Of a stretch of 64,000 nt of DNA, positions 9,187 to 49,343 are shown in pieces. The notes beneath the pieces were generated by a model, which was given only the letters and a program-made list of their open reading frames with translations, ran no database searches and had not been told where the DNA came from. A program made the translations under genes and the position numbers. The stretch comes from Acidobacteriota bacterium (GTDB lineage Bacteria; Acidobacteriota; Vicinamibacteria; Marinacidobacterales; Marinacidobacteraceae): assembly GCA_022828085.1 (NCBI GenBank), contig JAJEIY010000036.1, positions 151,783 to 215,782 on the forward strand, given 5' to 3'. Position 1 is the stretch's first letter; each line of letters begins with the position of its first letter.

Positions 9187-10158
9187 TCACCTGCTGCTGC
9201 GGACCGCCTCCGTGACGAGCGGAATGACCTCCAGCGCGTCGCCGACGATGCCCACGTCGGCCGCGCCGAAGATGGGGGCGTCGGGGTCCTTGTTGATGGC
9301 CACCACGAAGCGGGAGCCGCGCATGCCCACGAGGTGCTGGATGGCGCCGGAGATGGCGCAGGCGACGTAGAGCTTCGGCGACACGGTGGCGCCGCTCGAG
9401 CCGATCTGGAGCTCGTGGGGAAGCCAGCCGGCGTCGGTCACCGCCCGGGAAGCCCCGACCACGCCGCCGAGCGCCGCCGCCAGTTCGCGCACGATGTCGA
9501 GGTTCTCGGGACCGCCGAGGCCGCGGCCGGCCGCCACCACCACGTCCGCCGCCGTCAGGTCCACCCCGCCGGCAGCCGAGTCCCGGATCTCGACGAGGCG
9601 GGAACGCAGGTCGTCCGGGCCCACGGGGGAGGGGAGGATGCGCACCGAGAGCGCCGGCCCCGGTTCCCGGGCCGGAAAGGCCCCGCGTTCCACCGTGACC
9701 ACCGCGGGAAGGCCGGGCGCCGCCACCTCCTGGACGAACTTGCCGAGAAAGGCGGAGCGCCTCGCAACGAGCCCGTCCTCGCGCCAGGAAAGCGCCGACA
9801 CGGCAGTGGCGGCGGCGGTCGAAAGCCGCGCCGCGACCAGCGGCGCCACGTCCCAGCCGACCGGGTCGTGGGGGAGGAGGACGCACTCGGCGCCGCTGGC
9901 CTCCCGGGCGTGCAGCACGGCGGCCGCGAAACCGTCCGCGGTCGGGGCCGCGAGCGCCGGCCCCTCCACCAGCAGGAGTTCTCCCGCCGACAGGACTTCG
10001 CGCAGCCCTTCGGCCTCGCTGGCGTCACCGACCGGAAGGACGGCGCTCACCCCGTCCGGCCCGCCGGCGAGTCGGGAGGCGGCCTCGAGCAGTTCGTAGC
10101 TGGCGTCCGTGATGCCGTTTTCGCTCCGCTCGGCGAGGATCAGGACCCGGCGGCTCAT
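9187..10158 (-). CDS. etfA: electron transfer flavoprotein alpha subunit
   Basis: [10 protein letters not shown]...; C-terminal FAD-binding domain motifs ([19 protein letters not shown]). ATG at 10158 overlaps the etfB stop (ATGA). The track's 510-aa ORF has a spurious N-terminal extension. Confidence 0.9.
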
Positions 10159-10934
10159 GGTGCGTCTCCGGGAAAGGAGATTCCGGCGCCGGTCCGCATC
10201 CGGGGTACGAGCGCCGCCGCCGCCTCCTGGGGTGAACCCGGGAGGATCTCGGCGCTCGCGCCCCGCTCGGGCCTGCCGAGCGTCAGCCGGCGGAGCTCGC
10301 CGCCGTCCGCGGGAGCGGCGAGCTCCACGCGTTCCACCGGCTTGCGCCGCGAGGCCATGATGCCGCGGAGACTCGCGTAGCGCGGGGTATTGATGCCCGT
10401 CTGGACGGCCACCACCGCCGGCAGGCGCAGTTCCACGACGGCGATCCGGCCGCCTTCGAGTTCGCGGTGTACTTCGAGGCGCCCGTCCCGGAAATGCAGT
10501 CCGGTGGCGGCGGAAGCGAACGAGTAGCGGAGCAGGCCCGCCACCAGTCCCCCCACCTGCCCGTGGCCGCTGTCCTCGGCGAGGAGGCCGGCGGTCACCA
10601 CCCCGGCGTCGAGCCCGGATACGGCATCGGCGAGCGCCCGCGCCACGAAGAAGGGATCGGCGAGATGGGCGCGATCGGTGATCAGATGGACCCCGCGGTC
10701 CACTCCCATCGCCAGGCAACTGCGCAGCACCTGGCCGGCGTCGGCCGGGCCGGCGGTCACCGCCACGGTCTCCGCCGCGTGTCCCGCCTCCTTCAGCGCC
10801 AGCGCCGCCTCGACGGCGTAGCGGTCGTAGTCGTTGATGCCGTACCCGAGGCTGGATTCGTCGATCCAGTCGCCCGCCGGGCGAAAGGCGGAGTTCCGGT
10901 CGGGGACCTGCTTCACCAGCGCAACGGCATTCAT
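10155..10934 (-). CDS. etfB: electron transfer flavoprotein beta subunit
   Basis: MNAVALVKQVPD... typical EtfB N-terminus; 259 aa. Confidence 0.9.
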   Translation of the reverse strand: MNAVALVKQVPDRNSAFRPAGDWIDESSLGYGINDYDRYAVEAALALKEAGHAAETVAVTAGPADAGQVLRSCLAMGVDRGVHLITDRAHLADPFFVARALADAVSGLDAGVVTAGLLAEDSGHGQVGGLVAGLLRYSFASAATGLHFRDGRLEVHRELEGGRIAVVELRLPAVVAVQTGINTPRYASLRGIMASRRKPVERVELAAPADGGELRRLTLGRPERGASAEILPGSPQEAAAALVPRMRTGAGISFPGDAP

Positions 10935-10943
10935 TTGAAATCG

Positions 10944-11570
10944 ATGCGTATGATCGCCGCGCTAGCGTCCGGGGGCAAGGTGAGCGGCAAAGTACCGAGA
11001 GGGGCCTTCGTGGTGGGGGGAATCCTTGCGCTCGCGACCGCGCTCGGTCTGCTCGCGGTCGCCGGGAAACCGACCGCGGTCCGGCGGCCGGACCCGGTGG
11101 ACCGGCCGGTACTGCTGATCCCGGACTTCGACAACCGCACCGGCCGCGGGGAGTTTGCCCCCCTCGCGCAAGAACTCACCGAGGCAGTGCGGGCGCGCCT
11201 CGGGGAGGATCCGGACGGCATCTTCGAACTGTCGCCGCGGCGGCTCCGTCCTGCGTTCGGGCCGCGGGAGCGCGAGGAGGGGCTTGTCGGCATCGCCGGC
11301 CGGCTGGGCGCCGACTACGTCCTGGCGGGAAGCCTGGAGTCGGGGCCGGGCGGGGACCTGGCCCCCGGGTCCTCCTGGGAACCTCCGTCCGGCGCCGGCG
11401 AGGGTGACGCCCGAATCCGGCTGGACGTCCTCCTGGTGCGGGATTCCGACCCGCCGTACGTGTTCGCGGAGCGGTTCCCGCTGGGCATTCCAGACGCGGG
11501 CGGCGCCGAGGGGAACGAACTTGCGGATTGGGTTGCGGAGCGCATCGCGCTCTCGCTGATCCGGCCCTGA
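10944..11570 (+). CDS. hypothetical membrane-anchored periplasmic protein (one N-terminal TM; TolB-N/LpoB-like pattern)
   Basis: MRMIAALASGG...; a single TM (FVVGGILALATALGLLAV) then a soluble domain (VLLIPDFDNRTG...LGADYVLAGSLE). This is the 3' part of track ORF 10467-11570, whose 5' part is antisense to etfB. Confidence 0.5.
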   Translation: MRMIAALASGGKVSGKVPRGAFVVGGILALATALGLLAVAGKPTAVRRPDPVDRPVLLIPDFDNRTGRGEFAPLAQELTEAVRARLGEDPDGIFELSPRRLRPAFGPREREEGLVGIAGRLGADYVLAGSLESGPGGDLAPGSSWEPPSGAGEGDARIRLDVLLVRDSDPPYVFAERFPLGIPDAGGAEGNELADWVAERIALSLIRP

Positions 11571-11620
11571 GGTCGCTCCGGCACCGGCAGTGCGGTCCGA
11601 AAACCGCGCGGCCGCCGGGC

Positions 11621-12034
11621 TCAGCCCGTGTGGATCACGAGCGGAACGCCGGTGAGCCCCAGGTGACGATCCGTGGACCAACACCGCTGGATCTTGCGAT
11701 CGGCCATTACCTGAAGCCCTACCGCGTCCGCGAGCGTCAGGTCCTGATCCCGCAACCGGCGAAGTACGGCGCCGCCGTTCTCGATCTCGGCAGCGCCCAC
11801 CGAAAGGATCTGGAGAGGCTCCATCGTGTCGACCATGGCAAGGAATTGCAGCGCTCTGGTGCGGTCGTAGCGGCGTAGGAGCCAGCCGTGGCCTTCTGCG
11901 ACCACGAGGCTCGACGTCAGGAGTCGGGGCGGGCTGGCGAACAGACGGCGGAAGAGGGGATGCCACGTATCGGAGCGGTCGACGAACGCGATGAAGGCCG
12001 ACGTATCCACATAGGCGTCAGCGCCGGCGGCCAT
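11621..12034 (-). CDS. vapC: PIN-domain ribonuclease toxin VapC
   Basis: 137 aa. VDTSAFIAFVDRSD is the N-terminal acidic PIN motif, with further conserved D/E residues downstream. Overlaps the upstream antitoxin gene by 17 nt. Confidence 0.8.
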   Translation of the reverse strand: MAAGADAYVDTSAFIAFVDRSDTWHPLFRRLFASPPRLLTSSLVVAEGHGWLLRRYDRTRALQFLAMVDTMEPLQILSVGAAEIENGGAVLRRLRDQDLTLADAVGLQVMADRKIQRCWSTDRHLGLTGVPLVIHTG

Positions 12035-12242
12035 ATACGACCTCGTCGATCTGCGAGCTCGAATGAGGATCGCCGGTCTCGACCATGCCGGCGTAGCGCA
12101 TCCACGGCTTCGATTCGTCGCTCGGGACGACCGCGCGCAACGATCGTCGCAGCAGCTCGGCCAGGGAAATCCCGAGCTGCGCCGCTTCGCGTTTGGCGGC
12201 TCGGTACTCCGCGTCCGAAAGGCTGATCTGCGTCCGAATCAT
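12018..12242 (-). CDS. vapB: type II antitoxin VapB-like (small DNA-binding protein)
   Basis: 74 aa, MIRTQISLSDAEYRAAKREAAQLGISLAELLRRSL... Small and basic, immediately upstream of and overlapping vapC. Confidence 0.65.
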   Translation of the reverse strand: MIRTQISLSDAEYRAAKREAAQLGISLAELLRRSLRAVVPSDESKPWMRYAGMVETGDPHSSSQIDEVVYGRRR

Positions 12243-12402
12243 GATGGCAGTCTACAACAGAGTGTTATCATCTCCGGTCAGCGGCGATCCGGTCCGTCAT
12301 CGGCCCGAATGGGGCCGGGGGCGGCCGCCACCGTGCCTGGCCGGCCGCGGTCCTGTCTTCTTGCCGATGTCTTCGGTGAGCGCGCTACCGCGCCCGGGCC
12401 GC

Positions 12403-13662
12403 CTACCGCAGCCGGATGGCGTCCCAGGCGTCCCAGGCGGAGGTGTCCGAGAGGATGATCTCGTCGCCCTCGGCGAGCCCGGCCAGCACCTCGATGCGGT
12501 TCACGGAGCCCCGGCCAAGTTCGACCGGCACCCGCTCCGCGGTCTCGCCGTCGGGCGCGATCCGGAAGAGGCCGACGGTGCTCCCCGGCTGGCCATACGC
12601 CGGCCGGCCGACGTGGAGCGTGTCCGGGATCCGGTCGAGTTCGATCGTGCCGTCCACCGAGAGATCCGGCCGGGCGCCGCGGGGCAGCTCGCCGGCGATC
12701 CGGATGTCCACGGCCACCGTTCCCTCGCGCACCGCGGGGTCCACGCGGGAGACGACGCCTTCCACGACCCCGTTCCGGGTGTCCACGAGCGCCGGCTGGC
12801 CGGGTTCGACGTCGCGCGCCTGCGTTTCGGCGATTCGCAGCACCGCCTTGAGTTCGCGCGGATCCGCCACCCGCGCGAGGTTCGCTCCGGGACTCACCTC
12901 CTGGCCGACCTCGACCGGCACTTCCAGGAGGGTCCCGGCGCGTCCGGCCCGGACCGTGAGGGCGGCGAGCTGCCGCCGGCGGAGTTCCAGGACCGCCCGG
13001 TAACGCGCGACGGTCGCTTCCTTGGAGGCGACCTGCGCTTCGCTCGAATCGGCCAGGATGGAGAGGCGCTCTTCCTCGAGGGCATGGCGGGTCTCCAGTT
13101 CCTCGGCGCTCACCTGGCTGCGCCGGTGGATCAGCTCCCCCACCAACCCGGCCTCGAAGAGCTTCCGGTCGGCATCGGCGCGGCGGCGCGCCTGGGACGA
13201 GGAAGCGGCGAGCTGGCCGGCCGCGTTCCGCTGCTCCAGCAGGTCGGAACGCGTCTGGTCGAGCAGGCGCCGGAGTTCCGCCTCCTCGGCGCGGAGCTGG
13301 AGTTCGGCCTCCCGGGTCTGCTGTTCGAGTTCGGGATTCGAGAGGACCAGCAGCACGGTGTCCTCCTCCACCGGGGTCCCGGGGAGCACGCGGCGTTCCT
13401 CGACCCGGCCGCGGGTCTCGGCGGCCAGCCAGCGGATCTGTTCGGGCGGGACCTGGAGGCTGCCCGGTCCCCGGACCTGCCGGACCAGCTCGCCGCGCTC
13501 GACCACGCCCGTCCAGACGACCGAGCGGTCCACTTCGGGCGCGCCGGGAGCGATGCTGCCGAGCAGCAGAAACACCGCCAGCAGCGCGGCGGCGCCGCCG
13601 CCAGCCAGAATCAGGCGCCGGACGCGGCGTTTCCGCTGCCGGTCGGCGATCTGGAAGTCCAC
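12403..13662 (-). CDS. HlyD/EmrA-family membrane fusion protein (periplasmic adaptor subunit)
   Basis: About 419 aa. N-terminal TM (LILAGGGAAALLAVFLLLGSIA), a very long coiled-coil hairpin (NPELEQQTREAELQLRAEEAELRRLL...), then barrel-sandwich and beta-barrel regions. Probable GTG start at 13662, 20 nt downstream of the dctQM stop. It is the 3' portion of a spurious 990-aa ORF. Confidence 0.8.
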   Translation of the reverse strand: MDFQIADRQRKRRVRRLILAGGGAAALLAVFLLLGSIAPGAPEVDRSVVWTGVVERGELVRQVRGPGSLQVPPEQIRWLAAETRGRVEERRVLPGTPVEEDTVLLVLSNPELEQQTREAELQLRAEEAELRRLLDQTRSDLLEQRNAAGQLAASSSQARRRADADRKLFEAGLVGELIHRRSQVSAEELETRHALEEERLSILADSSEAQVASKEATVARYRAVLELRRRQLAALTVRAGRAGTLLEVPVEVGQEVSPGANLARVADPRELKAVLRIAETQARDVEPGQPALVDTRNGVVEGVVSRVDPAVREGTVAVDIRIAGELPRGARPDLSVDGTIELDRIPDTLHVGRPAYGQPGSTVGLFRIAPDGETAERVPVELGRGSVNRIEVLAGLAEGDEIILSDTSAWDAWDAIRLR

Positions 13663-13682
13663 TCCGCCTCCGCCGTCTTCCC

Positions 13683-15569
13683 CTAGTCGAAGAAGAGTCC
13701 CGGCAGCGCCAGGGTCAGGTACGGGATGTAGGTCACGAGCAGCACCGCGCCCGCCCGGATCAGCAGGAACGGCACCGACGCGCGATAGACCTCGCCGAGC
13801 GGCCGCTTGAACCGGTAGGAGGCGAGGAACAGGTTCATGCCCACCGGCGGGGTCAGGTAGCCGAGCTCGAGGTTCGTGAGGAAGATGACTCCGAGGTGCA
13901 GGGGATCGATGCCGAAGGCGAGTCCGAGCGGCGCGACCAGGGGCACCACGACCACGATGGCCGAGTAGATGTCCATCAGGCAGCCGACGATCAGCAGGAA
14001 GATGTTCAGCAGCAACAGGAAGAAGAGCGGGGAGGCCACGAACGACTGCACCCAGTCGATCGCCATCCCCGGGATGTCGGCGAAGATCAGGTAGTTCGTG
14101 AGCCCGAGGGCGGCGCCGAGGATGAGCAGCACGCCGCCGATCAGGGTCACCGCGTTGGCCCCGGTGCGGACCAGGTCCGAGAACGTCTTCCCCTCGCGGT
14201 GGATCACGAACTCGATGAACAGGGCGTAGAGGACGGTGATCGCGGCGGCCTCCACGAGCGTCGCGATGCCGCCGAGCATCACGCCGATGACCACGAAGGG
14301 GATGGACGCCTCCCACTTCGCGGTCCACAGCGCCCGCGCCGCTTCCCCGATCCGGAACGACGAGGTACCTCCCGTGAAGCGTTGGCCCGCGAAGCGCCGG
14401 GTCACCAGGATGGTGAACCCGGCCACCAGCACGATCTGGAGGGCCGAGGGGATCAGTCCGGCCACGAACAGCCGCGGGATGTCCACCTCGGCGACGATCG
14501 CGTAGAGGATGACGGCGACCGAGGGGGGAATGAGGAGGCCGAGCGAGCCCGCCGCGGTCAGGAGCCCGGTCGCGAACCTGGGGCGGTGGCCGTCGGCGAG
14601 CAGCAGGGGGAACATCAGGCCGCCCATCGCCAGGATGGTGACGCCGCTGCCCCCGGTGAAACAGGTGAAGAACGCGGACATCACGATCGCCACCACCGCC
14701 ACCCCGCCCGGCATCCAGCCGAAGACGCCGCGGAAGAGCACCACGAGGCGCTTGGGCGCGCCGCCCTCCGCGAGGATGTAGCCCGCGAGGGTGAAGAGCG
14801 GAATCGTCGGCAGCATGGGCTTCGTGACCATGCTGTAGGCCTCGGCGGGAATCGCCGCGACCGGGTCCCAGTTGCTCCACAGCAGCACCGCGGCAGCGCC
14901 GCCGAGCGCCACGAAGATCGGCGCCCCGAACGCCGCGGCGATCAGGATGAGGGCGAGCAGCGGCCATTCGATGCCGTATCCGGTGAGGTCCCACCCGGTG
15001 AGCCCCTCGTGGAGCAGCAGGGGAACCGCGAGGCCGAGGACCGCGGTCCAGCGGCCCCAGGCGGTCGGGACCCGCCGCCAGAGCCGCCAGGCGATCAGCA
15101 GGAAGCCGACCGGCATGACGGCCACGGCGGCCCAGACCGGGACGCCGAGCGCCAGTTCCCGGCCGCCCTCCCACTCGGCCCGGGTGAGCACCACGCTGGC
15201 GTAGGAGAGCGTGACCGACACCACGACCCCGACCGCGCCCGACAGCGACAGGAGGCGCGGCCTCCAGACCTCGGACACCATGCTCGGGCCGGCGCTCAGC
15301 GAGAGCAGCTCGCCCCGGCGGGACGCCACCGCCGCCCCCAGGAAGGCGACCCAGAGCGTCAGGTGCTGCACCCACATGAACGAGCCCGGGATGCCCGTCG
15401 GATAGACCGGACGGATGAGCGCCTCGGTGATCGGGATCGCCGCCATGAGGACGAGCGCGCCGACGGAGGTCGCGTCCTCGAAGACCGCGAGGCGGCTCCG
15501 GGGCGGAGCGGCTGGCTCCGGGGTCGCGGCGGTCCCGTCCGGGAGGGCCCCTGCGGCGTCCGGACTCAT
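13683..15569 (-). CDS. dctQM: TRAP transporter fused permease (DctQ-DctM fusion, 4TM+12TM)
   Basis: 628 aa, highly hydrophobic. Matches the fused small/large TRAP permease family. Confidence 0.9.
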   Translation of the reverse strand: MSPDAAGALPDGTAATPEPAAPPRSRLAVFEDATSVGALVLMAAIPITEALIRPVYPTGIPGSFMWVQHLTLWVAFLGAAVASRRGELLSLSAGPSMVSEVWRPRLLSLSGAVGVVVSVTLSYASVVLTRAEWEGGRELALGVPVWAAVAVMPVGFLLIAWRLWRRVPTAWGRWTAVLGLAVPLLLHEGLTGWDLTGYGIEWPLLALILIAAAFGAPIFVALGGAAAVLLWSNWDPVAAIPAEAYSMVTKPMLPTIPLFTLAGYILAEGGAPKRLVVLFRGVFGWMPGGVAVVAIVMSAFFTCFTGGSGVTILAMGGLMFPLLLADGHRPRFATGLLTAAGSLGLLIPPSVAVILYAIVAEVDIPRLFVAGLIPSALQIVLVAGFTILVTRRFAGQRFTGGTSSFRIGEAARALWTAKWEASIPFVVIGVMLGGIATLVEAAAITVLYALFIEFVIHREGKTFSDLVRTGANAVTLIGGVLLILGAALGLTNYLIFADIPGMAIDWVQSFVASPLFFLLLLNIFLLIVGCLMDIYSAIVVVVPLVAPLGLAFGIDPLHLGVIFLTNLELGYLTPPVGMNLFLASYRFKRPLGEVYRASVPFLLIRAGAVLLVTYIPYLTLALPGLFFD

Positions 15570-15610
15570 GGTTCCCCGGGGCGGATTGCGCGGGTCAGTC
15601 CGCGGCGGGG

Positions 15611-16636
15611 CTACTCATTGGCGGCCCGGTACTCGTCGCGCAGCCGGATCATGCGGTCGAACACCGGAGGGGAGACGAGCTGCTCCCGGACCAGCGGGAA
15701 GAGCTTCTCCGCGGTCTCCATCCAGGCGCTTTCGAACGCGGAGGAGGCCTCGATCACCTCGAGACCCCGCGACTTCATCGCCGCGAGCGACTTCCGCTCC
15801 TGCTCGCGGTTGGTCTCGCGGAACGATTCCGCCGCCTCGTTGCTCTTGCGGAGCACCACCTCCTGCTGGGACGGGTCGAGCCGTTCCCAACCCTGCTCGT
15901 GCACGATGATGGCGCCCTGCAGCGGCGCCCAGGGGAGGTCGTTCATGAACTTGGCCGAGCGGTAGATCTGGGACCCCTCCGCGAGCACGATCGGCAGCGG
16001 GACGGCCTCGATGAGTCCGGTCTGGAAGCCGCTCACCAGCTCGACCGAACTGATCTGGACCGGGTCGAAGCCCGACCAGCGCAGGAGATCGAGGACCGTC
16101 TGGTCGTTCGAGGCGCCCGCCAGCTTCAGCGCCTGCAGGTCTTCGAGGGTGTTGACGGGGTCGCTCGCGAAGAAGTGGAGCCAGCCCACGTCGGCCCAGG
16201 CGATGACCTGGAACCCGTGCCCGCTCAGCGTTTCGGCGATCGCCGGGTTCATGGCCTCCCGGACGTGGTCCCATTCGGGGTAGTCGCGGAACACCATCGG
16301 GATGGAGAGCGTCCAGGCGCTCGGGTCCAGTTCGGCGAGTCCCACGTTGGAGACCGCGGCCATCTGGACCTGGCCGAGCCGCATCTTGCTGATCATCGCG
16401 GTTTCGTCGCCGGCGGCGCCCCCGGCGATGATGCGGATCCGCACCTCGCCGCCGGTCTCGCGGCCGATCTCGGCGGCCATCTTGTCGAGGATCAGGTGGT
16501 AGGCGGACCCCCGGGGCGCGACGGTCGCGAGGCGCAGGTTGACCCGCGCCTCGGCGGCGGCCGCGGGCAGGACGAGGGCGAGAGCCACGAGCGCGACGCT
16601 CCGGCCAGCCGGAAGGAACTTTCTGACGTTCGGCAT
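15611..16636 (-). CDS. dctP: TRAP transporter substrate-binding protein, DctP family (TatP-like)
   Basis: 341 aa from MPNVRKFLPAGRSVALVALALVLPAAAAEA (signal peptide); DctP-type SBP fold motifs. The upstream part of the track's 496-aa ORF is spurious. Confidence 0.9.
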   Translation of the reverse strand: MPNVRKFLPAGRSVALVALALVLPAAAAEARVNLRLATVAPRGSAYHLILDKMAAEIGRETGGEVRIRIIAGGAAGDETAMISKMRLGQVQMAAVSNVGLAELDPSAWTLSIPMVFRDYPEWDHVREAMNPAIAETLSGHGFQVIAWADVGWLHFFASDPVNTLEDLQALKLAGASNDQTVLDLLRWSGFDPVQISSVELVSGFQTGLIEAVPLPIVLAEGSQIYRSAKFMNDLPWAPLQGAIIVHEQGWERLDPSQQEVVLRKSNEAAESFRETNREQERKSLAAMKSRGLEVIEASSAFESAWMETAEKLFPLVREQLVSPPVFDRMIRLRDEYRAANE

Positions 16637-16656
16637 AAGGGAATTCTCTGCTGTTT

Positions 16657-17598
16657 CTATGGGTTCTGCATGCCGTCGAGGAAATAGTCGTCGACGTTCC
16701 TGAGCAGCCACGCGGCCCGCTCCTGCGCCACCTGGTTCAGGAGACGCGCTCCCGGTTCGCTGTCGATGTCGAAATCGAGCGTCTGCCGCAACAGGGTCTC
16801 GAATTCCTCCCGGTTGCCGCTCGCGACCGATCCCGTCTCGGCCCAGGTGGACCAGAGCACCGGAGCCCGCGCCGGGCCGATCCCGAGCGCGTGCTCGTAG
16901 TACTCGCGTCCCTGGTCGATGGAGCCCCCGATCCGGGACACCTCGTAGATGCTGAGGTAGTCGTAGACCACCCCGTCGTCCACCGTGTCGTCGAGTTCGC
17001 GGGACCGGTTCAGCAGGGCGCCCATCAGGGAGAGGTCCGCGGTGGCCTCGGGATTGTCCGTATCCATCGCGATCCAGGCGCCGAGCGCGGTGCCTGTCCA
17101 CAGCGCCAGGGCGGCGTCGTCGACCTCCAGCTCGGCGGCGGCCGCCTCCGGGTCGCGGCGGAGGCGGGCTTCGATTCCGGGATGGTTCACTTCGAGACCC
17201 CGCATGCCGTAGCCCGTGGCGCGGCGGTAGAGCCGGGCGGCGCGCCGCCGCACGGCCTGCTTCTCCTCGAACTGGGTGAAGTCGAGATCGAAGAGGTCCG
17301 GCTCCACGAAGCCGTAGGCGAAGAGCAGGAAGCCCTTGGTCGCGCTCAACAGCATCTCCCGGTGCTCGGGGCTCGTCTCCAGCATCGTCTCCATGAGCCA
17401 GAGGTTGTTCGCGAGCGGCGCCTTGACGAGGTCGAGGTCATCGTCGGAACGGAGGACGGCCTCGCCCTCGGCGAGCAGTCCCGAAATCGAGTTCACCGCC
17501 ATGTTGGCGACGAGACTGCACCCCGGCAACCACGTCAGCGCGGCGAGAAGGCCGGCAGCCGGACCGAGCCGCATCCTCCCCGCTCCCACGGTCCTCAT
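16657..17598 (-). CDS. tatT: TRAP-transporter-associated TPR lipoprotein (TatT family)
   Basis: 313 aa; lipobox LTWLPGCS; helical TPR-like repeats. Its position immediately upstream of the dctP-dctQM genes matches TPAT (TPR-protein-associated TRAP transporter) organisation. Confidence 0.7.
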   Translation of the reverse strand: MRTVGAGRMRLGPAAGLLAALTWLPGCSLVANMAVNSISGLLAEGEAVLRSDDDLDLVKAPLANNLWLMETMLETSPEHREMLLSATKGFLLFAYGFVEPDLFDLDFTQFEEKQAVRRRAARLYRRATGYGMRGLEVNHPGIEARLRRDPEAAAAELEVDDAALALWTGTALGAWIAMDTDNPEATADLSLMGALLNRSRELDDTVDDGVVYDYLSIYEVSRIGGSIDQGREYYEHALGIGPARAPVLWSTWAETGSVASGNREEFETLLRQTLDFDIDSEPGARLLNQVAQERAAWLLRNVDDYFLDGMQNP

Positions 17599-17680: not shown

Positions 17681-18238
17681 ATGCGTTCGAACCCTCCTCC
17701 TTCTCTTGTGCTTCTGGCCGGGTCCGCCCTGGTGTCGCTGGGGCTGACCGTGTCTCCCGCCGCGGGCGCCGCGGGGCCGGCGAACGTCAATTCTGCCTCC
17801 CCGCAGGCTTCCGCCGCCCCGGATCCCATCGTCGGCTCCTGGCGCCCGCGCGAGTACCGCCTCGCGGCCGGAGAGGCGCTTCCGGTGGACGGCCGGATCG
17901 TGTTCCTCGCCCGGAGCGACGACGGCAGGCGCGGCGAGTGGTCCGTGACCTTCTTCGTGACCGGCGCGGACGGCGCCGCGGTCCGCGGGTCGGCCGAGGG
18001 CGGGGAATGGTCGCGCGATGGAAGGTCTCTGGTGCTCACCCACCAGTACCACCTGTCGGCGGGGGACGCCGCCGGGCCGCTCGCGGCGGCCCCGCTCGCG
18101 ATGGCGATGCGTTCGGCCGAGGAAGCGGACACGAACCACCGCGAACCCTGCGAGGTCACGGTGGAGGGCGGCCTGCTGACGCTCTTCTTCCCGAGCGGCA
18201 ACTCGATGACCTTCGAGCGGGTCGAGGGGCTCCGCTAG
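17681..18238 (+). CDS. hypothetical secreted protein (lipocalin-like/DUF)
   Basis: MRSNPPPSLVLLAGSALVSLGLTVSPAAGAA signal; IVGSWRPREYRL... beta-rich. 36 nt upstream of iorA, so possibly co-transcribed. Confidence 0.5.
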   Translation: MRSNPPPSLVLLAGSALVSLGLTVSPAAGAAGPANVNSASPQASAAPDPIVGSWRPREYRLAAGEALPVDGRIVFLARSDDGRRGEWSVTFFVTGADGAAVRGSAEGGEWSRDGRSLVLTHQYHLSAGDAAGPLAAAPLAMAMRSAEEADTNHREPCEVTVEGGLLTLFFPSGNSMTFERVEGLR

Positions 18239-45205: not shown

Positions 45206-45274
45206 GCCGACGGTCCGGCGGGAAGGTAGAGGCGGCGCGGGCAGATCCCCACCCAATCCGGGGTCGTGCCCGGC

Positions 45275-47101
45275 GCCCGTGACCCGAATCACTTCGGCAA
45301 CCGTGGTCTCGCCTTCCAGGAGAAGCCGCACTGCTGCCTGGCGGAGGCTGAGAACTCCCTGGCGGCGCGCGGAGCGGGCGAGGTCCTCCGTCGCGCAACC
45401 CGCCAGGACTTCGGCGGCTGCCCGGGTGTCGATGGGCAGGATCTCGAAGACGGCCCGGCGCCCCTGGTAGCCGGTGTCGCGGCAGCGCGCACAGCCGGCG
45501 CCCCAGCGGACCGGTCGGCCGGCTGCCGCGGAGGCTGAAAGGGTCTCCGCCTCGCCGGCCGAGACCGTGGTCTTGCGACTGCAGCCGCGGCAGATGGTGC
45601 GGACGAGCCGCTGGGCGACGACACCCACCAGTGTCGAGCCGATCAGGAAGCGCGGCACTCCAAGATCGGCAAGCCGCGTGATCGCGCCGGGAGCGTCGTT
45701 GGTGTGGAGCGTGGAGAGGACGAGGTGTCCGGTGAGGGCCGCCTGCACCGCCATTTCGGCCGTTTCGGCATCCCGGATCTCTCCCACCATGAGGATGTCC
45801 GGATCCTGGCGGAGCACGCTGCGAATCGCCGCGGCGAACGAGAAACGGATGCGGGGATTGACCTGTACCTGGCTGAGCGGCGGGAAGACCAGTTCCACCG
45901 GATCCTCGATCGTCACGACGTTCACCTCGGGCGTCGCGATGTGACGAAGCACCGAGTAGAGCGTGGTGGTCTTGCCGCTGCCGGTGGGGCCGGTGACCAG
46001 GACCAGTCCTTCCCGGCGGCTCAGCATCTGGCGGAGCCGCCGCTCCTCGTCCCCGGCCAGCCGGAGCTGTTCGAGCGACGAGACGAGGGCCGCGGGATCG
46101 AACACCCGCAGCACCGCCTTTTCGCCGAACACGGTGGGCAGGGTCGAAACCCGCAGCTCGATCTCCTTTCCCGATTCGATGCGCTTGATGCGACCGTCCT
46201 GGGGACGGCGTTTCTCGGCGATGTCGAGCCCGCTGAGCATCTTGAGGCGGCTGACGACGGCCTGGTACACGATGCGGGGGAAGGTGTGCATGGTCCGCAG
46301 GACGCCGTCCACCCGGAAGCGGACGACGGCGTGGTCCCGCTTGGGTTCGAGGTGGATGTCCGAAGCGCGGTGCTCGAACGCCTGGTGGAGGATGCTGTCG
46401 AGAGCGGCAACCACCGGGCGGGTCGTGGGCTCGAGGTCGCCGGCGGCCTCCGACTCCGAAACGAACTCCTGGTCCCCCGCGGGTGGGTTCGCGCGCTCGC
46501 CGTGGTCGTGGGTCAACTCGGTCTCCGCGGCGCGCAGGGACGTCCGCAGGTTGTAGAGGCTGCCGTTGATCCCTTCGATGTCGGAACGCGTCGCGACCAC
46601 GACCTTCACCCGAACCCCCAGGTATCGCTCGAGGTCCGCGATGGCCCCGCGGTCGAAGGGATTGGCGACCGCCACCGTCAGGGTGTCCGCGTCCCTGGCG
46701 AGGGCGCAGATGGTGTGCCGGCGGGCGAACGGCGCCGGCAGGGCGCCGGTCACTACTTCCGGGTTGAGTTCCAGCGGGTTGATCACCCGGAAGGGGAGTC
46801 CGGCGTCCAGCGCGACTGCCTGCGCGATGTCCTCTTCCGGGAGGATCCCCCCGGCCACTAGGGCGGCCTCGTGCTGCGGCGGAGGCAGCCGCCCGACAGC
46901 CGCGGCGCGGCCGGCCTCGGCGGCGGGGATGCGCCCCTGGCGGCGTAGCAGCGCCAGCAGGCCGGGAATCGGGTTCGGGACGGCGCGCGGAACCCCGGGC
47001 GCCGGGGTCTGCGGGGCGTCCCCGGGGTCGCGATGGACGGGGCCTCCGGCGGCACGGGGGGACACCGCCGCCGGCTCCGGGGCCTCTTCTGGATGCAACA
47101 T
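45275..47101 (-). CDS. GspE/PilB-family type II secretion/type IV pilus assembly ATPase; 3' end undefined because there is no in-frame stop before 43937
   Basis: N-terminal T2SSE_N domain; Walker A GPTGSGKTTTL; Asp and His boxes; tetracysteine CRGC...CARC; C-terminal TTVAEVIRVTG. ATG at 47101 is preceded by GGAGAGG; the track start at 47116 is a TTG. The ORF continues 1.3 kb past the conserved C-terminus, antisense to nptA. Confidence 0.8.
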
Positions 47102-47224
47102 GGAAAACCTCTCCAAGTCCTTAGACGCAGATCGGCCCGAAACTTTCCCGTTCCGGAGCGCAATGTGGAAAAGTCGAAGCGAAGCGCGCCTGCCGGCGGC
47201 GTCCGGAAGGGCCGGGCTCCGGTG

Positions 47225-47230
47225 TAGAAT
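47225..47230 (+). promoter_or_regulatory. possible -10 element (TAGAAT) for tRNA-Val
   Basis: TAGAAT lies 16 nt upstream of the mature tRNA 5' end. No convincing -35. Weak. Confidence 0.2.
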
Positions 47231-47246
47231 CGCGCCCCTCTCGGAC

Positions 47247-47321
47247 AGGCGCGTAGCTCAGGGGGAGAGCGCTACCTTGACGCGGTAGAAGTCGGCGGTT
47301 CAAATCCGCCCGCGCCTACCA
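47247..47321 (+). tRNA. tRNA-Val (anticodon GAC), CCA encoded
   Basis: Manual fold: acceptor AGGCGCG/CGCGCCT, D-arm GCTC-AGGGGGA-GAGC, anticodon arm CTACC-TTGACGC-GGTAG, T-arm GGCGG-TTCAAAT-CCGCC, discriminator A, CCA. Confidence 0.9.
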
Positions 47322-47441
47322 TTCCTCCGTTCGCGGGACCCCGCGGTTTCGAGTACGAGCCCGCCCCGGCTGCCGCACGCCACTGCCGGGCGGCGCCCGC
47401 CGGGTGTTGTGCGGCGCCCCCGGCCGGGATAAAAAGACAGC

Positions 47442-49343
47442 GTGCCTGCTTCCATCCGACTACGCCTTCCTGACGGGGGCGAGGTGCAACTCCCGGCGGG
47501 AGCGCCGCTTTCCGGGGTGGCCCCGGCTGCGGCGGTCGCCGCCACCGTCGACGGGCGGGAGGTGGACCTCGCCCACTGCCCCGACGCGGATGCCGAGGTG
47601 CGGTTCCTGACCCCGAAGGACTCTGACGGGCTCCACGTGTTTCGGCACAGTTCGGCCCACCTGCTGGCCGCCGCCGTCAAGGACCTGTTCCCGGACGCCC
47701 GCTACGGGATCGGCCCCCCGATCGAGGACGGCTTCTTCTACGACTTCCAGGTCGAGGAGCCCTTCACTCCCGAGGATCTCGAGCGCATCGAGGCGCGGAT
47801 GCGCGAGCTCGTGAAGGCGCGGGTGCCCTTCGAGCGCGAGATCCTCGACAAGGACGATGCCCTGCGGATCTTCGAAGATCAGGGCGAACTCCTGAAGGTG
47901 GAGCTGGTCCGCGAGAAGGGGGGCCAGCGGGTTTCCTGCTACCGGGTGGGGAGCTTCTTCGACTTCTGCGAGGGCCCCCACGTGCCGCACACCGGGGTGA
48001 TTCGGGCGCTCAAGGTGCTCTCGAGTTCCAACGCCTACTGGAAGGGGGACGCGCGGGGCATCCCCATGCAGCGGATCTACGCGACGAGCTTTACCGACCG
48101 GAAGGCGATGGCGGCCCATCTCTCCCGTCTCGAGGAGGCGAAGCGGCGCGACCACCGGCGGATCGGCCGCGAGCAGCGGCTCTTCCTGATCCTTCCGGAG
48201 GCCCCGGGGCAGGTGTTCTGGCTGCCCGCGGGGATGGGGGTGGTGAATCGGCTGCTCGATTCCATGCGGGAAAAGCTGGACCGCCGGTCCTACCAGGAAA
48301 TCCGGACTCCCCTGATCCTGAACGAGTCCGTCTGGGCCCGCAGCGGCCATCTCGACCACTACCGGGACAACATGTTCTTCATCGAGTCGGACGAGAACCG
48401 CTTCGGCGTCAAGCCCATGAACTGCCCCGGCGCGGCGCTGGTCTATCGATCCGACATCCGTTCCTACCGGGACCTGCCGCTCCGGCTCTCGGAATTCGGC
48501 CACTGCCACCGGTTCGAGCCCTCGGGCGTTCTCTCCGGGCTGACCCGGGTACGGGCCTTCACCCAGGATGACGCGCACGTCTACTGCCGCCTCGATCAGG
48601 TCAAGGCGGAGGTCCGCGATCTCGTGGACCTGGTGAAGGAGGTCTACGGCGAGTTCGGCTTCGAGGACATCCAGATCGAACTCTCGACCCGTCCCGAAAA
48701 GTCGGTGGGGAGTCCCGAGACCTGGGAACAGGCGGAAACGGCTCTCGCGGAAGCCCTCGCCGAATCCGGAGACAACTGGGTGGTGAATCCCGGAGACGGC
48801 GCGTTCTACGGTCCGAAGATCGACTTCCACGTCCGTGACGCGCTCCGCCGCAGCCACCAGTGCGCGACCATCCAGCTGGACTTTTCGCAGGCGCCGGCCT
48901 TCGATCTGAACTACGCGACGGAAGACGGCGGGCGGGAGCGCCCGGTCGTGATTCACCGGGCGATCCTCGGCTCCGTGGAGCGCTTCTTCGCCCTCCTCCT
49001 CGAGCACACCGGCGGGGCTCTCCCGGTCTGGATCGCTCCGCTACAGGCCGTGTTGATCCCCATCGCCGACCGGCACCAGGCGCACGCGGCGGAAGTGGCT
49101 GCCGCCCTCCGGGAGCGGGGCTTCCGGATCTCGGTCGACGACCGCCGGGAAAAGATGGGCTACAAGATTCGCGAGGCGGAAGTGGGGCGGGTTCCGTTCA
49201 TGGTGGTGCTCGGGGACCGGGAGGTGGAAGAAGGCACCCTCGCCGTGCGTACCCGGGGCCGGCGGGGCCAGGAAACCATGACGGCCGCCGCGCTCGTTGA
49301 ACGTCTCGACGAACTCACGCGAAGCCGGTCGCTCACCCCGTGA
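47442..49343 (+). CDS. thrS: threonine--tRNA ligase
   Basis: 633 aa; TGS domain, second additional domain, class II core motifs and anticodon-binding domain. Aligns along its full length with E. coli ThrS. Confidence 0.95.
   Translation: MPASIRLRLPDGGEVQLPAGAPLSGVAPAAAVAATVDGREVDLAHCPDADAEVRFLTPKDSDGLHVFRHSSAHLLAAAVKDLFPDARYGIGPPIEDGFFYDFQVEEPFTPEDLERIEARMRELVKARVPFEREILDKDDALRIFEDQGELLKVELVREKGGQRVSCYRVGSFFDFCEGPHVPHTGVIRALKVLSSSNAYWKGDARGIPMQRIYATSFTDRKAMAAHLSRLEEAKRRDHRRIGREQRLFLILPEAPGQVFWLPAGMGVVNRLLDSMREKLDRRSYQEIRTPLILNESVWARSGHLDHYRDNMFFIESDENRFGVKPMNCPGAALVYRSDIRSYRDLPLRLSEFGHCHRFEPSGVLSGLTRVRAFTQDDAHVYCRLDQVKAEVRDLVDLVKEVYGEFGFEDIQIELSTRPEKSVGSPETWEQAETALAEALAESGDNWVVNPGDGAFYGPKIDFHVRDALRRSHQCATIQLDFSQAPAFDLNYATEDGGRERPVVIHRAILGSVERFFALLLEHTGGALPVWIAPLQAVLIPIADRHQAHAAEVAAALRERGFRISVDDRREKMGYKIREAEVGRVPFMVVLGDREVEEGTLAVRTRGRRGQETMTAAALVERLDELTRSRSLTP

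Follow-up and report, generated by a model that had tools for sequence, protein, structure and literature searches.

Organisation of the operon

The system analysed here is a four-gene operon in a 64,000-nt window (the whole stretch of DNA under analysis) of the acidobacterial contig JAJEIY010000036.1, in which the genes of an importer of the TPAT type (TPR-protein-associated tripartite ATP-independent periplasmic, or TRAP, transporter) are followed by the gene of a periplasmic adaptor, or membrane-fusion protein (MFP). As the window has a G+C content of ~ 71%, genes were called by means of third-position GC together with a codon-usage score, and the calls were verified by translation. Third-position GC frames and translations both display four co-directional genes on the minus strand in the order tatT-dctP-dctQM-MFP, so the tightly spaced quartet on which the original prediction was built lies exactly where it had been placed:

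tatT, 16657-17598, minus strand: TPR lipoprotein of 313 aa with an LPGC lipobox, the T-component of a TPAT-type TRAP transporter
dctP, 15611-16636, minus strand: periplasmic solute-binding subunit of the TRAP transporter, 341 aa, with a signal peptide
dctQM, 13683-15569, minus strand: TRAP permease of 628 aa, small and large subunits fused
dctQM-MFP spacer, 13663-13682, minus strand: 20 nt with a GGAGG ribosome-binding site, too short for a promoter or terminator
MFP, 12403-13662, minus strand: MacA-like periplasmic adaptor, 419 aa, GTG start

The intergenic gaps are 20 nt between tatT and dctP and 41 nt between dctP and dctQM. Direct reading of the sequence confirmed the 20-nt distance predicted between dctQM and the adaptor gene: between the TAG stop codon of dctQM and the GTG start codon of the MFP lie 20 nt that include GGAGG, and this start is confirmed by homologues beginning with MDF. 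A scan for promoters and terminators inside the operon gave no signal above background.

The importer genes

The three importer genes were assigned to the families that had been expected. TatT matches PF16811 over profile positions 2-263 of 263 (E 9.5e-60), and its closest solved relative is Tp0956 of T. pallidum (3U64, E 8e-22), Es_TatT of Enhygromyxa salina (8G52) being matched at E 6.5e-6; its lipobox Cys27 is invariant in the TatT alignment (A2). DctP matches PF03480 (E 1e-40) and NF037995 (254 bits), and its PDB matches include the T. pallidum protein Tp0957, TatP(T), at E 6e-20. DctQM carries both a DctQ (PF04290) and a DctM (PF06808) domain and scores 315 bits against TIGR00786. Hence a TatT-family lipoprotein is encoded together with TRAP genes, and the dctP and dctQ/dctM genes adjoin in one predicted transcription unit, all on the minus strand and separated by the short gaps given above. 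By its sequence, the TRAP part of the operon is a TPAT as the class is defined.

For the TatT proteins of T. pallidum and of Enhygromyxa, long-chain fatty acids are known ligands (PMC11713862), while a physical TatT-TatP interaction together with a hydrophobic ligand of this kind is known solely for Tp0956/Tp0957 and Es_TatT (PMC11713862). Going by homology to Tp0956 and Es_TatT, the ligand of the window TPAT would most likely be long-chain fatty acids or a similar hydrophobic compound. The gene set of the T. pallidum TPAT, Tp0956-Tp0958 (TatT, TatP(T), TatQ-M), is identical to TatT, DctP and the fused DctQM of the window, although the identity between the window TatT and Tp0956 is low. Unlike the T. 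pallidum and Es systems, the window has a fourth gene, that of a MacA-like adaptor translationally coupled to dctQM. An adaptor gene within a TPAT operon goes unmentioned in the TPAT literature examined.

Fold and class of the adaptor

In Pfam searches the adaptor shows the domains HlyD_3 and HlyD_D23, the outcome of a check on domain architecture that the original prediction had proposed. An AlphaFold2 model built on 44 homologues has a mean pLDDT of 88.6. It displays an N-terminal transmembrane helix (residues 3-35), a hairpin made of helices 110-170 and 176-233, and beta domains from 236 to 418; the beta-rich part corresponds to the lipoyl, beta-barrel and membrane-proximal domains. Each hairpin helix is ~ 60 residues in length, which at 1.5 Å per residue gives roughly 90 Å. 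The hairpin, described beforehand as very long, is indeed long but not extreme. When its tip was viewed by eye, alignment A4 showed no conservation of the RLS-type motif's arginine.

In a Foldseek search of the PDB, the top matches of the model are MacA chains of the MacAB-TolC pump (9QGY_G, 2.8e-22; 5NIK_D, 1.5e-20; 21% identity), AcrA, MexA and EmrA ranking below MacA, and EmrA below both MacA and AcrA. Likewise, E. coli MacA is the sole solved relative of note found by phmmer (E 2e-8). The adaptor had been labelled HlyD/EmrA-type, and this label does not hold: the score is 27 bits against a cutoff of 391 for TIGR00998 and 20 bits against 393 for PRK03598, and the model has a full membrane-proximal domain, which the EmrA/HlyD type with its very long hairpin lacks. 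Since MacA is the best match by structure as well as by sequence and the EmrA/HlyD models fall far below their cutoffs, the protein was labelled MacA-like. A marginal match to the RND-type MFP model TIGR01730 (98.5 bits, cutoff 94.9) was also obtained; neither the window nor any of the related loci that were examined has an RND gene.

The model thus combines the four-domain MacA fold with an N-terminal membrane anchor, and as far as a predicted structure defines it the adaptor is a MacA-type MFP. It shares the transmembrane anchor, the hairpin and the lipoyl, beta-barrel and membrane-proximal domains with E. coli MacA of MacAB-TolC (PDB 5NIK, 9QGY, 3FPP), but it has no MacB-type ATPase, permease or TolC nearby and is embedded in a TRAP operon. 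Indeed, Pfam searches on essentially all called genes identified no ABC, FtsX, RND, MFS or OEP/TolC gene in the 64-kb window, and tblastn with MacB-type ATPase and permease queries found no match in it either. The statement that no ABC, RND or MFS partner is present within several kb is therefore valid over the full 64 kb. A MacA-type protein is expected to be encoded with a MacB-type ABC transporter, and this holds for all 75 readable homologous loci as well as for the window-type paralogue of L169 and L171, but not for the window.

Normal neighbours of the adaptor family

The protein database contains many MFP homologues of ~ 419 aa, 58-97% identical to the window protein and annotated as adaptors of Acidobacteria or Vicinamibacteria. 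In order to describe the usual neighbourhood of the family, a set of 81 loci (L086-L166) was used, made of 80 loci from a metagenome scan (46-60% identity) and L086. A MacB-type ABC ATPase lies after the MFP in 75/75 readable loci, and these ATPases are 70-96% identical to the reference ATPase of L003; in the six remaining loci, which gave no ABC match, the DNA stops within ~ 260 nt of the MFP. Given this constant linkage, the family is that of the adaptor of a MacB-type ABC exporter. Most ABC-linked loci also carry one to five duplicated permeases of ~ 800 aa with MacB_PCD and FtsX domains. In the pumps of these relatives the ATPase and the duplicated FtsX permease are distinct proteins, whereas in E. 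coli MacB the two are fused. The duplicated permeases are putative members of the 'ADOP' duplicated orphan permease family, TIGR03434.

In L095, L100, L135, L142, L153, L155, L156 and others, three to five paralogous FtsX permeases of ~ 800 aa stand in tandem behind a single adaptor and ATPase, suggesting that one adaptor/ATPase pair serves many permeases.

The window MFP therefore belongs to the adaptor family of these acidobacterial MFP-ABC-duplicated-FtsX clusters. In the sister loci L003 and L087 the module adjoins a TPAT, and it is the ATPase and the permease that are missing from the window locus.

A graded series of loci

When the loci are arranged by the identity of their MFP to that of the window, a graded series appears:

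L086 (MFP 58%): MFP-ABC-FtsX-ABC, no TRAP genes
L003, L087 and L088 (MFP ~ 59%): TatT-DctP-DctQM, a spacer of 181-459 nt, then MFP-ABC-FtsX (duplicated)
L085 (MFP 59%): TPAT, then MFP-ABC, then electron-transfer flavoprotein (ETF) genes; permease gone
L084 and L170 (64%), L001 and L002 (71%), L172 (78%), L173 (85%), L168 (90%), L167 (97%) and the window: TatT-DctP-DctQM, a spacer of -1 to 51 nt, MFP, no adjacent pump gene

Downstream of the MFP, the loci are held together by a small convergent gene and the ETF genes, which in the window are the following:

convergent gene, 10968-11567, plus strand: membrane-anchored protein of ~ 200 aa, synteny anchor between the MFP module and ETF
etfB, 10155-10934, minus strand: electron-transfer flavoprotein (Pfam PF01012/PF00766 for the etfB-etfA pair)
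etfA, 9187-10158, minus strand: electron-transfer flavoprotein (same Pfam pair)

In L003 and L087 the small convergent gene and ETF come next; the short contig L088 stops inside the FtsX gene. The nine pump-less loci (64-97% identity) have the convergent gene and ETF as well, apart from L172, where unrelated genes lie downstream, and the short contig L002; with the exception of these two and of L088, etfBA is the anchor common to the TPAT-MFP loci. The convergent gene, which all TPAT-MFP-ETF loci possess, was found in L001, L003, L084, L085, L167, L168, L170 and L173; by tblastn its product is 60% identical to that of a 201-aa gene in L001 and 31% to that of a 165-aa gene in L003, and it has no Pfam or NCBIfam match. 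The shared synteny, YjeF-TsaE-sulfatase upstream and the small gene with ETF downstream, ties the TPAT-MFP lineages with and without pump genes together.

The spacer between dctQM and the MFP measures -1 to 51 nt in the nine pump-less loci versus 181-459 nt in the four loci that carry the ABC gene. In a neighbour-joining tree the ABC-less MFPs form one clade. Because a sister lineage has the TPAT, the spacer and MFP-ABC-FtsX at the same site before ETF, the orphan state of the adaptor would have arisen by loss of pump genes. The operonic linkage of TRAP and MFP genes proposed from the window alone is thus conserved in nine loci of its clade. Had the adaptor never adjoined TRAP genes in relatives, the linkage would have been considered coincidental; its conservation shows that within this lineage it is not.

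The interval between the MFP and the convergent gene (11568-12402 in the window) is a variable spot where relatives carry the ABC and FtsX genes. In the window it holds a vapBC-like pair:

vapBC-like pair, 11621-12242, minus strand: RHH (ribbon-helix-helix) antitoxin 12018-12242 and PIN toxin 11621-12034

The PIN toxin is matched at E 1e-8 while the RHH match is weak (E 0.003, below the Pfam cutoff), so that the vapBC pair expected downstream of the operon is plausible. No gene was called at this spot in the 97% relative L167 (11261-11708), and L168 (11330-16701) carries there an SbcCD-like AAA_23/metallophosphatase pair and a PIN gene. The vapBC region of the window is absent from L167, L172 and L173, and in L168 it is found elsewhere, inverted, at 84% identity.

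Other observations concern genes around the operon. A duplicated FtsX/MacB_PCD permease is encoded directly after etfA in L173 (17881-20313) and L168 (19735-21108); the two are 85% identical to each other and 32% to the L003 permease. The window has no FtsX permease after etfA, a fumarase gene following directly. Divergent from tatT, a gene at 17708-18238 (plus strand) encodes a secreted protein of ~ 176 aa, 55% identical to its L001 counterpart and without Pfam or NCBIfam match. Finally, ~ 2.3 kb of the window (45206-47516) received no confident gene call, and its longest open reading frames (45704-46861 and 46566-47288, both plus strand) have no Pfam match.

A paralogue inside a MacB-type operon

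An MFP of the window type, 82-83% identical, was found away from TRAP genes in two independent assemblies. In both (L169:7962-14811 and L171:7977-14824) the order is MFP' (417 aa), ABC, MFP, one or more ankyrin-repeat proteins and duplicated FtsX (~ 810 aa), followed by a sigma-70 family gene. The presence of two adaptors and of ankyrin-repeat proteins within one MacB-type operon is unusual. At the DNA level, the window and L169 are homologous from 23 nt upstream of the MFP start codon to the MFP stop codon, a stretch that takes in the ribosome-binding spacer and the stop codon of dctQM. The same 2.1-Mb contig holds both L169 and a normal TPAT-MFP-ETF locus, L173. The L173 MFP is 85% identical to that of the window and 79% to the L169 paralogue, which itself is 83% identical to the window protein. 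Recruitment of one copy by a MacB-type pump makes it evident that this adaptor is compatible with pumps of that kind; and since the TPAT-linked copy is still kept beside the paralogue, the two may be non-redundant.

Selection on the stranded adaptor

The ratio of non-synonymous to synonymous substitution (dN/dS) was estimated by the Nei-Gojobori method for two pairs. Between the window and L167 (dS 0.21) it is 0.095 for the MFP, 0.18 for TatT, 0.14 for DctP, 0.15 for DctQM and 0.09 for ETF-beta, and between the window and L168 (dS 0.70) it is 0.081, 0.22, 0.20, 0.17 and 0.07 respectively. The MFP is under strong purifying selection, and its reading frame is intact, at 418-419 aa, in 9/9 TPAT-linked loci.

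Furthermore, the pump-less clade keeps 105 of the 131 positions (80%) that are at least 90% conserved in the 81 ABC-linked homologues, and the clade-specific shifts are three, all conservative (I3F, D52G, V402I). The membrane-proximal and barrel domains, which in MacA contact the pump, are the best conserved parts of the protein in this clade. Between the window and L003 the MFP is 58% identical, while ETF, TatT and DctP are 50-53% identical; hence the MFP shows no speed-up after pump loss. Accelerated evolution or a switch of partner was searched for and not found, given this identity and the three conservative shifts.

Survey of other TPAT loci

The original prediction had called for a survey of TatT-associated TRAP loci for a conserved MFP. 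This was performed with an 8-sequence TatT alignment on one genome per species; the sampled TatT proteins are 33-43% identical to that of the window, and spirochaetes were not covered. The survey gave 80 other loci, belonging to several classes of Acidobacteriota as well as to Gemmatimonadota, Desulfobacterota and Verrucomicrobiota; in nearly all of them TatT, DctP and DctQM follow the order seen in the window. A window-like MFP was found in 0/80 loci by tblastn, and the family hidden Markov model, run on six-frame open reading frames within 10 kb on either side, again gave 0/80. In addition, HlyD is not among the recurrent Pfam families of the 117 genes lying just after DctQM in 62 loci, a listing of families with at least two members in which a single stray HlyD would not show. 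An FtsX permease lies within 10 kb in 4/80 loci. The survey thus yielded no conserved MFP, and the idea that it is a general TPAT component was rejected: TPATs in general manage without an adaptor.

The families that do recur after DctQM in the 62 loci (L004-L083 set) are AMP-binding, that is acyl-CoA-synthetase-like, in 8 loci, and PTA_PTB/DRTGG/AAA_26, phosphotransacetylase-like, in 8 loci. Together with the ETF genes of the window, such neighbours fit the uptake and activation of fatty acids or acyl compounds.

A comparable neighbourhood in T. pallidum

The T. pallidum operon tp0959-0972 encodes MacB (TP0962-64), the MFP TP0965 and four TolC-like outer-membrane factors (PMC8407342), and it has been proposed that TP0965, a single MacA-like adaptor, serves two pumps (PMC8407342). 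It is like the window MFP in being an adaptor whose pump need not be its immediate neighbour, and in both cases a TPAT shares the neighbourhood of a MacAB-type module, the adjacency in T. pallidum being deduced from locus-tag numbering. In contrast to the window, the T. pallidum adaptor has the MacB genes and four outer-membrane factors in its own operon. This would be a second, independent juxtaposition of a TPAT with a MacAB-type module, in an unrelated phylum. The cited paper makes no comment on the adjacency of the TPAT and the MacB operon (PMC8407342).

Interpretation

The locus holds known kinds of proteins in an undescribed operon arrangement. Literature searches for a TatT/TRAP-MFP pairing and for orphan adaptors returned nothing relevant and no paper on an MFP in a TRAP or TPAT operon, in agreement with the earlier remark that such a pairing had not been described. 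We consider it probable that the operon encodes an ordinary TPAT importer co-expressed with a functional MacA-like adaptor, which probably serves a MacB-type pump encoded elsewhere. In the ancestor of this Vicinamibacteria-like acidobacterial lineage, a separate MFP-ABC-FtsX exporter module would have stood downstream of the TPAT and upstream of ETF. The FtsX permease gene and then the ATPase gene would have been lost from the locus, and the spacer between dctQM and the MFP, once roughly 200-450 nt long, would have shrunk to at most 50 nt; by this shrinkage, we propose, the MFP would have become the final gene of the TPAT operon, in transcription as in translation. The adaptor would retain the role of MacA, forming a hexameric periplasmic funnel on a MacB-type pump (ATPase and duplicated FtsX) elsewhere in the genome, and this funnel would probably connect to an outer-membrane channel. 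The co-expression of MFP and TPAT would then reflect regulation or genomic history and not a physical TRAP-MFP complex. Relatives do carry dispersed FtsX permeases, for instance those after ETF in L173 and L168.

Several observations weigh against this interpretation. No pump partner was found in the 64 kb of the window. The contraction of the spacer shows that the MFP is integrated into the TPAT transcription unit, and the gene is held at the 3' end of that operon across a clade spanning 64-97% identity, under more constraint than the TPAT genes that accompany it. The TPAT-linked MFP is kept even where a second copy sits in a MacB operon, to which a TPAT-specific role would also fit. The T. 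pallidum TPAT, tp0956-0958, is numbered directly beside tp0959-0972 (PMC8407342; adjacency taken from locus-tag order in a secondary source). Moreover, the direction of change, loss and not gain of ABC-FtsX, rests on parsimony and on a neighbour-joining tree of unrooted quality.

The original prediction was that of a TRAP importer coupled to the adaptor. It would imply that the MFP was co-opted by the TPAT after pump loss and that a periplasm-spanning assembly with DctQM, TatT and DctP channels a hydrophobic ligand between the outer membrane and the permease. Tight translational coupling in the nine loci, against 181-459 nt where the ABC gene remains, an MFP dN/dS of 0.08-0.10, lower than that of any other gene of the operon, the persistence of the TPAT-linked copy in a genome that also has a paralogue in a MacB operon, the lack of any pump gene in 64 kb and the T. 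pallidum TPAT adjoining a MacB/MFP/OMF operon by locus-tag order are all compatible with such a capture, as is the finding that the ligands of TatT proteins are long-chain fatty acids, which require assistance to cross the periplasm (PMC11713862). However, none of the 80 other TPAT loci has an MFP, so that TPATs work without one; the MFP family is otherwise always ABC-linked; 105/131 conserved sites are kept with three conservative shifts, giving no sign of a partner switch; an MFP of the window type also occurs within a MacB-type operon; and the literature searches revealed no TRAP-adaptor pairing. TRAP permeases are elevator-type importers, and we know of none with a periplasmic docking domain for adaptors, which also counts against such an assembly. 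We therefore regard co-option as unlikely, and the same holds for its more specific form, in which the captured adaptor would be a periplasmic funnel linking an outer-membrane channel or TatT to DctQM for long-chain fatty-acid uptake. The linkage that the original prediction described is borne out and conserved, and the adaptor is under strong constraint, but the proposed TRAP-MFP partnership is not supported, in view of the 75/75 ABC-linked relatives, the 0/80 TPAT loci, the 80% of conserved residues kept and the paralogue in a MacB-type operon.

A TPAT and a MacAB-type module could also be functionally paired without forming one machine, e.g. with fatty-acid import balanced by MacB-type export of lipids or lipopeptides under common regulation; retention of the MFP in the TPAT operon would then ensure that synthesis of the adaptor always accompanies that of the importer. 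Two deep sister lineages keep the juxtaposition, with the gene order ahead of ETF unchanged, T. pallidum has a comparable neighbourhood, and both the adjoining ETF genes and the acyl-CoA-synthetase-like genes beside 8/62 other TPAT loci point to lipid metabolism. This neighbourhood is nevertheless limited to the present lineage, plus T. pallidum by locus numbering, and among the 80 other TPAT loci four have FtsX within 10 kb and none an MFP, which leaves functional pairing as a minority explanation that we hold to be doubtful, if somewhat less so than co-option. At the other extreme, the MFP might be a non-functional relic of the ABC-FtsX deletion, transcribed by read-through and decaying, its linkage to the TPAT being meaningless. 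The graded loss of FtsX and then ABC would agree with this, as would the acceptance of insertions after the MFP (vapBC in the window, the SbcCD-like pair and PIN gene in L168). Yet a decaying gene would hardly display an intact frame in 9/9 loci, a dN/dS of 0.08-0.10 at dS 0.2-0.7, 80% of the family-conserved residues, a good Shine-Dalgarno sequence before its start and a confident AlphaFold2 model (pLDDT 88.6); decay is essentially ruled out by the dN/dS values and the intact frames.

If the adaptor does serve a MacB-type pump encoded elsewhere, the locus would represent a well-resolved case of operon remodelling, in which a pump adaptor outlives the neighbouring pump genes, under strong selection, and is absorbed into the operon of an unrelated importer. 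It would also be a warning against inferring partnership from adjacency. If instead co-option were true, the view that membrane-fusion proteins serve exporters only would be overturned, and TRAP transporters would gain a periplasm-crossing route for hydrophobic ligands, the first adaptor-assisted, envelope-spanning secondary importer; for that hypothesis, the clade of nine or more genomes with the TPAT-MFP operon is a defined candidate set. Finally, the locus adds context to the poorly understood TPATs: their position beside ETF here, and beside acyl-CoA-synthetase-like genes in other phyla, fits a role in fatty-acid uptake.

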